From a phage, in assembly GCA_025677605.1 (NCBI GenBank), contig GCA_025677605.1_4110.1: 64,000 bases of DNA; one strand, given 5' to 3'. The notes beneath the pieces were generated by a model, which had not been told where the DNA came from, searched no databases, and saw nothing but the letters and a program-made list of their open reading frames with translations. Position numbers and translations under genes: made by a program. Positions 18,873 through 23,647 of the stretch are shown piece after piece (position 1 is the stretch's first letter; each line of letters opens with the position of its first letter).

Positions 18873-19289
18873 CTATCCTTTATTTTTTTGAAACAATTTA
18901 ACAGCTTTAATTATACTGTTACACATTCGTTCGGTCAAATACTTTTGACAATCTTGAACATCAATGTACATGAATTTATCCAATTCTGGATGGCTTTTAC
19001 CATATCGATTGGTATAAGTACTGTTACACTTCAGTTCATCCGGTTCGGGTTTGTATTTAGCTGTATAGAAAAATAAAACTAATCTTTTCCCTTTCCTGTA
19101 TGATACATCACCTAATAAGAGAAGATCCTTTTCATCAATCTCAAATCCTGTTTCTTCATAGCACTCACGAACAGCAGCTTCAGCAAATGTTTCATTGCCC
19201 TCGGTTTTACCTTTTGGTAAATCCCAATGCTTCTGTCCGTGTTGTGTGTCCAACAAGTATCTGACCATCACGATAAAATATAATGCCAC
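18873..19289 (-). CDS. NUDIX hydrolase
   Basis: Canonical Nudix box GKTEGNETFAEAAVRECYEETGF (GX5EX7REUXEEXGU). Confidence 0.8.
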   Translation of the reverse strand: MALYFIVMVRYLLDTQHGQKHWDLPKGKTEGNETFAEAAVRECYEETGFEIDEKDLLLLGDVSYRKGKRLVLFFYTAKYKPEPDELKCNSTYTNRYGKSHPELDKFMYIDVQDCQKYLTERMCNSIIKAVKLFQKNKG

Positions 19290-19375: not shown

Positions 19376-20488
19376 TTAAAACATTTGTTGAATTGCTTCA
19401 CAACGTAAAACTGAAACAAAATCACGGATTTCAGATGCTTCTAACTCACCGTCTTTTACCAGTTGTTGAATATCTGGAAGTACTACATCAGTGTAACGAT
19501 CATATACCTTAATGATTAAATCTTCAAGGTCTAAATCAATCTCTTTACGTAGAATAAAATATTCCAGTACTTTGTAAAGGAATTCTTCACCGCCGTTATT
19601 CTTGATATTCATATCCAGTAATAATTGTCCCATTTCATTTGGGGTCTTTTTACGGAATGCCTTGATATCATCACGGAAACGTTTGATGTAATTACTGAAT
19701 TTAACGTACTTAACGGGCATTTTAATAGCACCATTCAGTACTGAATCCTCACCAATTTCTTCTTTCTCAAGAAGCACAGACCATAAGAAATATGGCTTAT
19801 ATGCTTCAGTACAATTATCAGAGATATGATCAATGAGTTCCAATGACTTTTTGGTTAATGTAGCATTAAATGCTTTTTCATAGTAACCAAACTTACTTAG
19901 TGTTTTAAGGAACTTAGCTGGCTTTTCTTCTGACAGTGCTTTTTCAAATTCAACATAAACACGGTCTGGAACAAGGTGATTTAGCTCACCAGACGCTACC
20001 ATATCGATTGCAAGTGCTTCAGTAGTCTCGTGTATAGAGAAATCAGAATAACGCGTAGCAAAGCGAGCTAGACGTAATACACGCAATGGATCTTCTTTGA
20101 AGTGTTCGGATACATGACGTAGTACTTTATTCTTGATATCAGCTTTACCACCGTATGGGTCGATGTGAATTTGCAGTACTGGATCATACGCGATTGCATT
20201 AATTGTAAGATCACGACGATACAAATCTTGTTCCAGTGTTACACCTTTTGTATCCACTTCGAAGCCACCGTATCCAGTACCAGTTTTTCGTTCAGTACGG
20301 GCTAATGCGTGTTCGTTACCTTCTGGGCTTAGATAAACTGGAAAATCTTTACCAACCTGTTTATATCCAATACTTTCTAAGTATTTGATATCAGATTCAG
20401 TTGCACCAACAATGACATAATCTTTGTCCTTTGCACGAATGCCCATTAGACGGTCGCGGCAGTATCCACCAACAAGGTATTTTTTCAT
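19376..20488 (-). CDS. cca: tRNA nucleotidyltransferase (CCA-adding enzyme)
   Basis: N-terminal LVGGYCRDRLMG with DxD-type nucleotidyltransferase motif; about 370 aa; ATG at 20488 with GGGAGAA RBS. Confidence 0.8.
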   Translation of the reverse strand: MKKYLVGGYCRDRLMGIRAKDKDYVIVGATESDIKYLESIGYKQVGKDFPVYLSPEGNEHALARTERKTGTGYGGFEVDTKGVTLEQDLYRRDLTINAIAYDPVLQIHIDPYGGKADIKNKVLRHVSEHFKEDPLRVLRLARFATRYSDFSIHETTEALAIDMVASGELNHLVPDRVYVEFEKALSEEKPAKFLKTLSKFGYYEKAFNATLTKKSLELIDHISDNCTEAYKPYFLWSVLLEKEEIGEDSVLNGAIKMPVKYVKFSNYIKRFRDDIKAFRKKTPNEMGQLLLDMNIKNNGGEEFLYKVLEYFILRKEIDLDLEDLIIKVYDRYTDVVLPDIQQLVKDGELEASEIRDFVSVLRCEAIQQMF

Positions 20489-20624
20489 TCTTATTCTCCC
20501 ATCAACCAATCACGCAGACTTTCCCAGAAGCCTTTTGGCTTGTATTCTGGAACTTGATATTCGTCGGTTCCTTGTTCAGAAACACCCCAATCTTCTTCTA
20601 ACATTGCAATCATAAAGCCTCCAA

Positions 20625-21047
20625 TTAAATTAATCTGTCACGCAAGCGGGATTCATATTGTTTATGTATAGATAGTATATACTGAAATGAAGAATAGTCA
20701 ATACCAAATGTGTCATCAATGAACATATACTGGGCCAGTACTTCAGGTCCATCATCAACTACAGGCAATGAACCTGCTTTTTTTTCTAACACATTCCATG
20801 CAAACTCATCGGAAGTATCAAATCTATGGTATTGTAGTTCTATCTTACTTTTTCTTAGTATAATTAATAATTCATCACCATCATCATATGCATTACGGAT
20901 TTTAATACGTACTGTTCCTTGTAACTGGTTAGTATACATTACGCGATATTGGTTGTATGTGACTAAACCACGTCTTTCAGTACTGAACTCTTGTTCAGAA
21001 AAGTACTTTAACGTTTCGTTGAATTTGGGTATTTTAGTAACGTCCAA
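20625..21047 (-). CDS. hypothetical protein, tandem paralogue A (140 aa)
   Basis: C-terminal region (QYMFIDDTFGIDYSSFQYILSIHKQYE) is paralogous to the next gene; apparent TTG start at 21047 with GAGGA RBS. Confidence 0.45.
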   Translation of the reverse strand: MDVTKIPKFNETLKYFSEQEFSTERRGLVTYNQYRVMYTNQLQGTVRIKIRNAYDDGDELLIILRKSKIELQYHRFDTSDEFAWNVLEKKAGSLPVVDDGPEVLAQYMFIDDTFGIDYSSFQYILSIHKQYESRLRDRLI

Positions 21048-21444
21048 TTACGTAATCCTCATACTGTTCGTATACACGCATTATACTCTGATATGTCACA
21101 AAGTCAATACCAAAGGTATCATCAATGAACTGATATTGCATAAACTCTTCCTCGGTAGCACCAATAGGAAGTGTGCCGTTTCGTTGATCGTTTGATTGAA
21201 CATCTTCAATGTACATCAAACCTATACTTTCATCTAAAGTGATATCTATCATAAAAACATCTTCACTATAAAACATGTTATATGAACGGATGAAAAGATT
21301 ACCAGTTCTATCAAAACTTGATACATGTGTTTCAACGTAGGTTCTATCTAAACTAAAGAATAAACCAGTACCATCGGGTTTTCGTTGGTCTTTCAATTTA
21401 ATTTCGATAGCATCAAATATCGGTTTAATATTAAACTTTTTCAT
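21034..21444 (-). CDS. hypothetical protein, tandem paralogue B (about 136 aa)
   Basis: Paralogue of 20625-21047; ATG at 21444 overlaps the stop of the upstream gene (ATGA). Confidence 0.45.
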   Translation of the reverse strand: MKKFNIKPIFDAIEIKLKDQRKPDGTGLFFSLDRTYVETHVSSFDRTGNLFIRSYNMFYSEDVFMIDITLDESIGLMYIEDVQSNDQRNGTLPIGATEEEFMQYQFIDDTFGIDFVTYQSIMRVYEQYEDYVIGRY

Positions 21445-21629
21445 AAGCAAATCACATACTTATTACTATGTGGATCGTAACAGTAAGAGTCGTTCACCTT
21501 AATGCCAGGTTTGAGTTCCAGGGTTGTACCCATTTCAGTACTGGGTTCTGCATCAAAGTAAATCATCACACCAATGCCACCGAGTAAGGCTATGATACAT
21601 ATAACTGCACCTATTGTATATTCCATCAC
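21441..21629 (-). CDS. small membrane protein (62 aa)
   Basis: One predicted TM helix (IGAVICIIALLGGIGVMIYF); ORF in track. Confidence 0.4.
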   Translation of the reverse strand: MMEYTIGAVICIIALLGGIGVMIYFDAEPSTEMGTTLELKPGIKVNDSYCYDPHSNKYVICL

Positions 21630-21643
21630 TATACCTCTGTTAT

Positions 21644-21729
21644 AAAAAGTAATTATACATTTTATTGTACAATATAAAAAGGTCTTAAAAAGTAATTATA
21701 CATTTTATTGTACAATATAAAAAGGTCTT
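21644..21729. repeat. perfect 43-bp tandem direct repeat (2 copies), each with the 12-bp palindrome TATTGTACAATA
   Basis: Copy 1 at 21644-21686 and copy 2 at 21687-21729 are identical; the repeat overlaps the 3' end of CDS 21662-22075. Confidence 0.8.
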
Positions 21730-22075
21730 TCACATTATCATAAGTAATGTTAGATAGATCATAAATCAATGATAACTGAAAAAATGAAGCTTCGTCTATA
21801 TCTACTGGGATTATAACATCATCATCTTCTGCCATTTTATTATCGTAGTATTTTATGTGGTCTTCATTAAACTCAATAGAGATTGATACTGCGTTGGATT
21901 TCATATCTTCAATTAATCCAATCAAATTAGATTTATCATTAATAAAAAATCCAATTCCAACCCTACGGTCCTCTGGATATGGATAGTACCATCTATTAAA
22001 TACTAGACTATCTGGTAAATCAACATCATGTGTTGATACGAGAGATTTTACAATTTCCATCCAAGCATAATTCAT
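21662..22075 (-). CDS. hypothetical protein (137 aa; C-terminus encoded by the tandem repeat)
   Basis: ORF in track; the last approximately 22 codons lie inside the duplicated 43-bp unit. Confidence 0.4.
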   Translation of the reverse strand: MNYAWMEIVKSLVSTHDVDLPDSLVFNRWYYPYPEDRRVGIGFFINDKSNLIGLIEDMKSNAVSISIEFNEDHIKYYDNKMAEDDDVIIPVDIDEASFFQLSLIYDLSNITYDNVKDLFILYNKMYNYFLRPFYIVQ

Positions 22076-22089
22076 AATTAAAACTCCAT

Positions 22090-22117
22090 AAGAAAAGGGA
22101 CAGAATTAATCTGTCCC
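22090..22117 (-). terminator. putative terminator hairpin after hpf
   Basis: 7-bp perfect stem GGGACAG/CTGTCCC with 7-nt loop directly after the HPF stop; the U-run is short. Confidence 0.35.
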
Positions 22118-22126
22118 TTTATTATA

Positions 22127-22459
22127 TTACTCTTCTTCGTCAGTTACATCAACTACAACTGGACGGTCTGGATGGTTTCGGCGGTGCAATTTAATGCTTT
22201 TGTCTTTACTGAATACAGTTTCCATTTTTTCGAATGAATCGACAATCGCCTTGTATAAATCTGCATCATCGGCAGTAACAGACTTACCACCTGATGTTAA
22301 AGTTACTGCGTACTGTGTCTTATGCTCTTTTTTCACATGAACACCAATATTCAGTACTGAAGAATCACTAAATTTATTTAGAGTGTTTGCTTCTTGATGA
22401 ATTGCGTCATGGATTGCTGGAGTAATATCAACATTACCTTGAATAACTAGATTTAGCAT
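22127..22459 (-). CDS. hpf: ribosome hibernation promoting factor (HPF/YfiA/RaiA family)
   Basis: 110 aa; N-terminus MLNLVIQGNVDITPAI and the DLYKAIVD core align with the bacterial HPF pattern as recalled; RBS AAGGAAGG. Confidence 0.75.
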   Translation of the reverse strand: MLNLVIQGNVDITPAIHDAIHQEANTLNKFSDSSVLNIGVHVKKEHKTQYAVTLTSGGKSVTADDADLYKAIVDSFEKMETVFSKDKSIKLHRRNHPDRPVVVDVTDEEE

Positions 22460-22473
22460 ACTTCACCTTCCTT

Positions 22474-23400
22474 TTAGATTGAGCTTAACAAAGTATCCGC
22501 TCTGTTTGTTACTTGCCTATACCATAAGGAATTTTTGATTTCTCTTTTAAACTTCTTATGATTTTCAGCTTCAGCACTTCTCCATAGTTTATTAAATGAG
22601 GCCAACTTATCAACACCCATCGTGTAAGCCATGTCAAAGAGAATACGTTGTTGGTCTTTTGTAAGATTTACTGCATTTTTTTTCTTCATTAGAGTTGTAA
22701 AGTCATTATATGTCCTTTTCAAATCTTGAAGTAATAGTTTATGTGCTTGTGCGTTGGTAATACCGTTTCTGTACTTAATTGCATCAGATTCTTTCTTACC
22801 TAAGTAATGTCCATAACCTATTGTATAATTACCTTTCATATCCTTATAAGGATGAAATTTTGAATTGTAGAAAGGAACTCCAACTTTTCCCCCAAGTAAA
22901 CGTCTTTTGTTCTTGGACTGAAATTCAATTGAACCTTCAGCTTCTTTGATGTGTGCTACTATTTCAGGATCATTATAATCGAAAAGTACTACCACATCAG
23001 GTAACAGTACGTCTTTCAAATCCTCTTTTGTTGGGATAAAGATACCCTGCGATGTATGAAGTTTAGCATTAAGATTGATATTCTTCAATACTGTAACGTA
23101 ATCTTCAAACAACACATTATGCGGTTTAAACTTCTTAGCTATCGAATGATAACTATCACCGTATTCAACAGTATAATGTTTCTCGCTGCCTGGAACTACT
23201 TTAGGTGTATACCCTTTAGGTAATTCCTGCTTTTGAATTTGTGTAACTTGCGGTTTTAAATTGTGCACCTGACTTTCGCCCGATGATGATGCACGATCAT
23301 GTTGAGAAAAACCATAAAATCCAAACGCAGCGATGATAACAAGTGAAACTAATAAGCCTATAGCTGTCTTAGTTTTAGGTGTTTGTATCGCTATTGTCAA
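22474..23400 (-). CDS. membrane-anchored lysozyme (T4-type GH24 fold) with LysM-like segment
   Basis: N-terminal TM/signal-anchor (LLVSLVIIAAFGFYGF), LysM-like YTVEYGDSYHSIAKKF, lysozyme motif NYTIGYGHYL; strong RBS AAGGAGG before a TTG start at 23400. Confidence 0.7.
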   Translation of the reverse strand: MTIAIQTPKTKTAIGLLVSLVIIAAFGFYGFSQHDRASSSGESQVHNLKPQVTQIQKQELPKGYTPKVVPGSEKHYTVEYGDSYHSIAKKFKPHNVLFEDYVTVLKNINLNAKLHTSQGIFIPTKEDLKDVLLPDVVVLFDYNDPEIVAHIKEAEGSIEFQSKNKRRLLGGKVGVPFYNSKFHPYKDMKGNYTIGYGHYLGKKESDAIKYRNGITNAQAHKLLLQDLKRTYNDFTTLMKKKNAVNLTKDQQRILFDMAYTMGVDKLASFNKLWRSAEAENHKKFKREIKNSLWYRQVTNRADTLLSSI

Positions 23401-23647
23401 AAACGCCTCCTTTGTTTGCGTGTTATGATGAGCAATTACAAAGAGGGCTTATGAGGCCATTTGCAAAAGCCTCATCGGACTTTCTACAATACTTTCAGTA
23501 CTGAAAAGGTAACTTTCATTCTGTACATGTAAGTAGTATAGCATCTTTCAATTTCATATCAAGTAAAATCTTGATATTTCTTTTGGTTATAATTATGGGT
23601 ATATTAATACCCATTTTATTTAGCCAATTGTATGACAAACCTATAGG

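Follow-up and report, generated by a model that had tools for sequence, protein, structure and literature searches.

A predicted RaiA-like ribosome-binding protein encoded beside a lysozyme gene in a clade of jumbo phages

Genes and expression signals at the locus

The stretch of phage DNA analysed here at its full length (64,000 nucleotides, hereafter the window) carries a minus-strand open reading frame (ORF) of 110 codons that starts with ATG and encodes a protein resembling hibernation promoting factor (HPF). Escherichia phage A4 (ON286972, 355.5 kb, Asteriusvirus, 121Q/PBECO4 group) matches this region at 99.3% identity, and the HPF-like protein is 100% identical to A4_529 (ON286972 133644-133973). 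The genes and signals that define the locus are as follows.

23535..23562, minus strand: candidate sigma-70-like promoter with an extended -10 element (TTGATA-N16-TGCTATACT), found by a scan with 10/12 matches plus TG
22474..23400, minus strand: LysM/lysozyme gene, 308 aa (Pfam Phage_lysozyme, 47.6 bits)
22463..22473, minus strand: Shine-Dalgarno sequence AAGGAAGGTGA of the HPF-like gene, seen in the sequence within the 14-nt gap past the lysozyme stop codon
22127..22459, minus strand: HPF-like coding sequence, 110 aa, stop codon included (ORF list, Pfam PF02482)
22088..22120, minus strand: terminator-like hairpin, a GGGACAGA/UCUGUCCC core AU-extended to 11 bp, plus a U-run (scan, folding)

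The initial annotation placed the HPF-like gene just upstream of lysozyme, which holds for plus-strand coordinates only. Because both genes reside on the minus strand, with the HPF-like gene at the lower coordinates, it is located immediately downstream of lysozyme with respect to transcription, which proceeds through lysozyme, the HPF-like gene and then the hairpin. Only 14 nt separate the lysozyme stop codon from the HPF-like gene, which is preceded by a strong Shine-Dalgarno sequence, and the two genes are probably co-transcribed. Their adjacency is kept in Asteriusvirus, fENko-Kae01 and Hallingskeid.

The hairpin that had been noticed after the gene is real, as evident from its folding energy (-20 kcal/mol, z = -4.3 relative to shuffled sequences) and from compensatory changes in distant phages. 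Its 11-bp stem spans 22094-22120 with a GC core at 22097-22117, followed on the minus strand by UUUUCUUAU. The stem is kept in eight phages whose HPF-like proteins are as little as 36% identical, with 86% of the cells in the alignment paired, and four of the 11 pairs carry compensatory changes on both sides. By these patterns the hairpin behaves like a genuine intrinsic terminator, and therefore the HPF-like gene is the last in its transcription unit.

Upstream of lysozyme, the sigma-70-like sequence is conserved in five of the six aligned Asteriusvirus phages and is a candidate promoter for the lysozyme-HPF unit. The lysozyme 5′ UTR contains a conserved anti-Shine-Dalgarno sequence, GCCCTCTTTGT (23438-23448), that is complementary to the lysozyme Shine-Dalgarno sequence ACAAAGGAGGC (23405-23415). 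This potential pairing suggests translational control of lysozyme, and the arrangement is reminiscent of that of T4 gene e. An exposed Shine-Dalgarno sequence of its own precedes the HPF-like gene, which therefore could be translated where lysozyme is silent; that transcripts with silent lysozyme yield the HPF-like protein is offered solely as a hypothesis.

The same 5′ UTR also carries a small hairpin (23453-23473) and an invariant 12-mer, TGTAGAAAGTCC, at 23477-23488. We considered whether TGTAGAAAGTCC might be a phage-specific promoter and rejected this idea, since TGTAGAAAGTCC has a single exact occurrence in the window and its approximate matches do not exceed the chance expectation.

Family placement and the RaiA-like tail

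According to the initial annotation, the ORF encodes a full-length HPF/YfiA-type protein of 110 amino acids, a description borne out by the ORF list, by Pfam and by the predicted fold. The profile search that had been set as its check gives a match to PF02482 (Ribosomal_S30AE) at 40.8 bits, compared to a gathering score of 23.7, with E = 3.8e-10 and coverage of profile positions 5-84 of 88. The same family is precomputed for all members of the jumbo-phage clade described below. A sequence search of the PDB with the HPF-like protein returned exclusively hibernation factors (best E = 5e-7).

The AlphaFold2 model of the protein (pLDDT 79) assigns secondary structure as E2-8, H14-30, E36-44, E50-56, E59-65, H68-85 and H87-95, with the order E-H-E-E-E-H. 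When this model was compared to the PDB by using Foldseek, the best 35 matches were all HPF/YfiA/pY/RaiA or RafH structures (TM up to 0.78), many of them solved on ribosomes. Weaker matches at ranks 36 to 50 include dsRNA-binding domains. Assignment to the HPF/YfiA/pY superfamily is therefore solid on the basis of both profile matches and the predicted fold.

More specific models do not claim the protein. It scores 34.8 bits against the HPF/YfiA equivalog TIGR00741 of NCBIfam (cut-off 40.9), 17.3 bits against the RaiA equivalog NF007654 (cut-off 158) and 20.1 bits against the short HPF equivalog NF007780 (cut-off 125). It also differs from long HPFs of the Firmicutes type in that PF02482 is the sole domain of its 110 amino acids, and the dimerisation domain PF16321 is absent from it in the Pfam search. 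By these scores, the protein is a divergent phage-lineage member of the family and is orthologous to neither HPF nor RaiA of E. coli.

Two portions of the coding region can be distinguished.

22184..22459, minus strand: segment before the tail (AlphaFold2 model and Foldseek)
22130..22183, minus strand: RaiA-like C-terminal tail, residues 93-110 (alignment with RaiA and AlphaFold2 disorder)

The C-terminus reads ...HRRNHPDRPVVVDVTDEEE. Within the tail, an R93-R94 anchor is followed by a linker containing proline and then by the acidic end VDVTDEEE. R93 and R94 align with R95 and R96 of E. coli RaiA, and the stretch after the arginine pair, which ends in acidic residues, is 16 residues long compared to 17 in RaiA. 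Residues 99-110 are predicted to be disordered by AlphaFold2, and the RaiA tail is likewise disordered on ribosomes (bioRxiv 10.1101/2025.10.07.680626). The acidic tail that had been noted at the outset is both real and conserved, as evident from the invariance of D104, E109 and E110 in 12 relatives. Together, the alignments and the model reveal a C-terminal extension with a basic anchor, a flexible and acidic terminus, and no dimerisation domain of the long-HPF type, which is the architecture of RaiA.

Structural data on the K. quasipneumoniae YfiA protein provide a reference for these residues (bioRxiv 10.1101/2025.10.07.680626). Its R95, R96 and A97 are strong ribosome interactors, with R96 also touching uS7, and Arg83 contacts the modified nucleotide m4C1400. 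The acidic end, although not resolved, progresses toward the RMF site; the blocking of RMF by the RaiA tail itself rests on partly unresolved density (bioRxiv 10.1101/2025.10.07.680626). We mapped the contact residues from this source onto the phage protein by alignment and measured conservation over 24 sequences of the phage clade, down to about 27% identity. The E. coli HPF and RaiA sequences used for comparison were translated from MG1655.

RaiA K29, phage K29: 100% conserved in the clade
RaiA W30, phage F/Y30: aromatic; F in 54%
RaiA I40, phage H41: His in 54%, as His42 of A. baumannii YfiA
RaiA K80, phage K78: 71%
RaiA R83, phage T81: Thr in 79%, contact lost
RaiA K87, phage position 85: 96% basic
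RaiA R95, phage position 93: 100% basic
RaiA R96, phage R94: 100%
RaiA C-terminal Glu (E112), phage E110: 96%

As judged from this alignment, most residues that RaiA uses for ribosome contact are retained in the phage clade. Phage K87, which lies beside the basic track of alpha-2, is conserved in all 24 clade sequences. The clade-invariant residues K29, K87 and [KR]93-R94, together with the basic position 85, coincide with or adjoin RaiA contacts, and this provides indirect evidence that the protein may bind in the decoding channel. R83, which is common to E. coli RaiA and HPF, is replaced as listed above, and N75 and K91 of RaiA are also not kept in the clade.

The tail is the most informative part of the protein, and it makes the protein resemble RaiA/YfiA rather than HPF. 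Therefore, formation of inactive 70S monomers is predicted, not 100S dimers. The net charge of the HPF-like protein is -5. We had also considered net charge or pI as a discriminator for ribosome binding, which proved to be uninformative, given that both E. coli proteins are acidic as well.

Distribution, selection and genomic context in jumbo phages

A profile search of 1.84 billion cluster representatives recovered no more than 62 proteins with E <= 1e-3, of which six reached E <= 1e-10. When the profile was broadened to the clade, scores above 100 bits were obtained for 22 full-length clusters (90% identity), and a Salmonella phage contributed a truncated copy that scores 84. Below the clade, scores fall to 63 bits and then to about 53 bits for cellular proteins. 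Those members that can be traced belong to Asteriusvirus coliphages, to the Munch/7t3/SE_PL/fENko-Kae01 group and to Erwinia phage Hallingskeid. By sequence, these HPF-like proteins form an isolated and distinct jumbo-phage clade, conserved among phages of Escherichia, Salmonella, Klebsiella and Erwinia with genomes of roughly 350 kb. The nearest cellular matches (about 53 bits) are long HPFs aligned through their N-terminal domain only, two of them named as Peptococcaceae (Firmicutes), and these probably constitute long-branch noise.

Within Asteriusvirus, dN/dS values for the HPF-like gene range from 0.12 to 0.27 (pairwise Nei-Gojobori, unsaturated dS). Lysozyme gives comparable values (0.11-0.19), and those for the next downstream gene are higher (0.26-0.70). 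The HPF-like gene thus shows a clear signature of purifying selection in these sequence comparisons. This ratio, orthologs in 43 phage records and the Pfam E value place the ORF far beyond chance.

All three groups of phages share a common block composed of lysozyme, the HPF-like gene, small ORFs, a CCA-adding enzyme and a NUDIX gene. The last two of these are located in the window as follows.

19376-20509, minus strand: CCA-adding enzyme (Pfam)
18873-19289, minus strand: NUDIX hydrolase (Pfam)

Genes for a glutaredoxin (or ‘redox enzyme’) and a macro-domain protein come next in A4 and fENko-Kae01, an RNA ligase gene lies upstream in fENko-Kae01 and Hallingskeid, and a Pth-like protein is encoded nearby in fENko-Kae01. 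Synteny around the HPF-like gene holds down to 36% protein identity. Since the block is conserved in all three groups, the gene is old and vertically inherited, and not a recent capture from a host. Recent capture is also contradicted by the low identity of the protein to E. coli HPF and RaiA (24-26%), and by tblastn searches with these E. coli proteins that miss the clade at E <= 1e-3.

Several additional observations were made in this region. Near the HPF-like gene, the A4 record lists genes for a glutaredoxin, a macro-domain protein and a thymidine kinase. Downstream of the HPF-like gene are two adjacent paralogous ORFs of about 140 aa (20625-21450 and 21662-22075, minus strand) that share the C-terminal motif QY.FIDDTFGID (BLASTP E = 2e-11); they match no Pfam family and, among PHROGs, only groups of unknown function. 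The ORF directly past the terminator is at best marginally related to these two paralogs (E = 0.046). No tRNA genes, and no Rfam families at gathering threshold, were found in the 64-kb window, and relatives such as Sharanji carry tRNA clusters elsewhere (PMC11895373). A 1605-aa predicted protein that was met as a database match and is not encoded in the window (P0015) consists of tandem repeats, about 29 in number, that each show a weak match to positions 45-81 of the HPF-like profile; it is probably an artefact of assembly or gene calling or an unrelated repeat protein. A 111-aa protein with a similar KSIKLAQRH segment (P0020) was not found in any deposited phage.

Alleles of the gene can be exchanged locally. 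In the lysozyme and downstream genes on either side, phages slurp01 and 121Q show about 100% identity (dS about 0.01). Over roughly the first 80 codons of the HPF-like gene itself, 15-27% of nucleotides differ between them (dS 0.55, dN/dS 0.15). This patch, at locus positions of about 1490-1740, reflects local recombination in which the core domain has been exchanged and the tail has stayed the same.

Outside the window, the same clade also encodes IF3-like proteins (PBECO4 250378-250728, Munch, 7t3, fENko-Kae01 and others) that are 30-40% identical to E. coli InfC, and such a protein has been noted for Sharanji (PMC11895373). Co-occurrence of IF3-like and RaiA-like genes hints at a coordinated grip on translation initiation.

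With regard to expression, the fENko-Kae01 ortholog has been detected as a protein by LC-MS/MS (six peptides). These data do not support packaging into virions or injection, as the preparation held many enzymes. The phAPEC6 virion proteome (62 proteins) lists neither the HPF-like ortholog nor the adjacent lysozyme.

Database names for these proteins vary. The A4 record (ON286972) labels A4_529 as ‘putative sigma factor / putative sigma 54’, which is a mis-annotation that arose by corruption of the legacy family name ‘sigma-54 modulation protein’, and several relatives carry the same sigma error or the name ‘hypothetical protein’. Orthologs in RefSeq (121Q gp533, PBECO4), UniProt (L7TII8) and several GenBank records already bear the names HPF/RaiA family, ribosome-associated inhibitor or ribosomal subunit interface protein. 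Mizuno et al. 2019 reported phage HPFs, among them one from the jumbo phage GAP32 (PMC6375957), and the paper describing the Sharanji genome counts an ortholog of the HPF-like gene among translation factors (PMC11895373). Given these published phage HPFs and database names, the finding is already known at the level of annotation.

Possible roles during infection and relation to known hibernation factors

What the protein does for the phage must be judged against the biochemistry of RaiA/pY, which binds strongly to free 30S subunits and promotes idle 70S monomers (PMC3633353). RaiA/pY cannot displace fMet-tRNA from initiation complexes that have already formed, its inhibition varies with the mRNA such that efficiently initiating mRNAs escape, and a protective role for unused subunits has been proposed (PMC3633353). 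In S. aureus, HPF protects ribosomes from RNase R (PMC8406268).

By analogy, we consider it somewhat probable that, during infection, the HPF-like protein keeps vacant host ribosomes parked in the form of protected 70S monomers. Like RaiA/pY, it would occupy the decoding channel of the 30S subunit between head and body, where it would overlap mRNA plus the A- and P-site tRNAs, and it would bind only to free 30S subunits and vacant 70S ribosomes. Binding would drive ribosomes into idle, nuclease-protected 70S monomers, and the tail would run toward the RMF pocket, thereby disfavouring 100S dimers driven by RMF and HPF. In an infected cell, ribosomes set free by the decay of host mRNAs would be preserved as a pool, and phage mRNAs with strong Shine-Dalgarno sites would initiate efficiently and still be translated. 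The HPF-like gene would then be part of a conserved block devoted to upkeep of the translation apparatus. The suggestion in the initial annotation that a phage copy could silence or preserve ribosomes of the host is thus plausible, although the benefit of such a protein to the phage is conjecture.

The position of the gene among those for tRNA and RNA maintenance fits this mechanism, as do the IF3-like genes elsewhere in related genomes. Several facts count against it, namely the change of R83 to Thr in most of the clade, the loss of N75 and K91, the scores below the NCBIfam equivalog cut-offs, and a precedent from another lineage: the rV5 phage HPF was absent from high-salt-washed ribosome preparations, and levels of 100S particles were unchanged (PMC6375957). 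We take the rV5 result as a caution, even though it concerns a different lineage and stringent washes. With both sides weighed, our confidence is moderate that the ORF is a functional phage gene encoding a divergent ribosome-binding protein of the HPF/YfiA(RaiA)/pY family with RaiA-type architecture.

Among the alternatives, we regard as unlikely, though better placed than the others, a role as a competitor of hibernation. The protein would take the HPF/RaiA site and, via its tail, the RMF site, and would be easily displaced, perhaps by an IF3-like protein, so that ribosomes of starved or stationary hosts are kept out of 100S particles and recruited for phage translation. This idea was proposed by Mizuno et al. 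(PMC6375957), and it is consistent with the strictly conserved RaiA-like tail, with the co-occurrence of IF3-like genes in the clade, and with loss of the R83 contact, which would fit weaker and reversible binding. However, the argument is purely inferential, and it overlaps largely with the parking of vacant ribosomes that we favour.

It is rather doubtful that the protein instead shuts off the host by blocking the A and P sites of its ribosomes and silencing translation generally, which could occur early, to prevent host defence proteins from being made, or late, to terminate the programme of infection. RaiA/pY does inhibit translation initiation in vitro in an mRNA-dependent manner (PMC3633353), and early expression would be possible from the sigma-70-like promoter that precedes the operon. 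However, with a single ribosome pool a general block would also stop phage translation, and the sequence offers nothing to suggest discrimination between host and phage mRNAs. Moreover, RaiA in vivo is not responsible for the bulk shutdown of translation after cold shock and inhibits only partially (PMC3633353).

Still less credible is a repurposed fold that has lost ribosome binding and presents its dsRBD-like surface to some other RNA or protein target. The sub-threshold NCBIfam scores, the lost R83, the net charge of -5, the dsRNA-binding domains among weaker fold matches and the rV5 precedent (PMC6375957) could each be read in this way. However, the residues that are invariant in the clade (K29, the alpha-2 lysines and the RR anchor) are those that coincide with ribosome contacts of RaiA, E. 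coli HPF and RaiA likewise have a net acidic character, and each of the 35 best structural matches is a hibernation factor bound to ribosomes.

Finally, a dodecin-like flavin-binding protein, prompted by weak matches to Pfam Dodecin (PF07311, 20.5 bits, below the gathering score of 22.5) and to NCBIfam dodecin models (E = 0.02-0.03), is effectively refuted because sequence and structure matches are all to the HPF family with dodecin absent among the listed PDB fold matches, and a spurious ORF is equally negligible given conservation under purifying selection.

A bolder reading, which we hold to be a long shot, treats these proteins as a RaiA-like jumbo-phage family of its own. The invariant [KR]-R anchor and T-[DE]-x-[DE]-E tail would be a device adapted to the phage that acts at the RMF/anti-Shine-Dalgarno side of the 30S subunit, and the resulting protected 70S pool would be reopened for phage mRNAs by the IF3-like factor of the phage. 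If true, the pool could be rapidly re-used, drawing on ribosomes of starved or defence-stressed hosts, and the phages would possess a two-component system for seizing control of ribosome hibernation.

The sequence finding itself adds little, and its practical output is a corrected annotation for A4. Phage hibernation factors have been catalogued, and the sole experiment, conducted with the rV5 HPF, was negative; beyond that test, no functional work on any phage RaiA or HPF was found in the searchable literature, which otherwise consists of papers describing genomes. Purifying selection and the RaiA-like tail make this protein well suited to, and tractable for, a study of whether ribosome hibernation is manipulated by phages, a question that bears on infection of slow-growing or stationary bacteria and hence on phage therapy.

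Among known systems, E. coli RaiA (YfiA, protein Y) has the same fold as the phage protein and a similar length (113 versus 110 aa). The two share an equivalent RR anchor, tails of 17 and 16 residues that end in FVEEVEEE and VDVTDEEE, respectively, and the conserved K29, an aromatic residue at position 30 and lysines of alpha-2. However, they are only 24% identical, R83, N75 and K91 are not conserved, and the phage gene resides downstream of lysozyme in a virulent jumbo phage rather than at the host raiA locus. E. coli short HPF (YhbH, 95 aa) shares the S30AE core (hhalign probability 94%, identity 26%), but lacks the RR anchor and the acidic tail, whereas the phage protein has a tail of about 18 residues. 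In addition, E. coli HPF makes 100S dimers with RMF, and the phage tail predicts the opposite, RaiA-like behaviour.

Other phages carry further HPF copies, as found by tblastn. The rV5-like (Vequintavirinae) HPF is likewise an S30AE protein of E. coli phages larger than 130 kb, but it represents an independent lineage that is 42-44% identical to E. coli HPF. Searches by tblastn with E. coli HPF or RaiA did not retrieve the A4 clade at E <= 1e-3, and the A4 protein did not retrieve rV5-type phages. The S30EA protein of Cronobacter phage GAP32 (K4F6Q6, 111 aa), which is listed as a phage HPF (PMC6375957), also comes from a jumbo phage and has a similar length and the same predicted fold, but is 21% identical to the A4 protein in a structural alignment and was not retrieved by tblastn. 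The jumbo-phage orthologs 121Q gp533, PBECO4 L7TII8, phAPEC6, Sharanji, Munch, 7t3, fENko-Kae01 gp218 and Hallingskeid (36-88% identity) share synteny, the terminator and the tail motif with the A4 gene, and alleles differ through local recombination.
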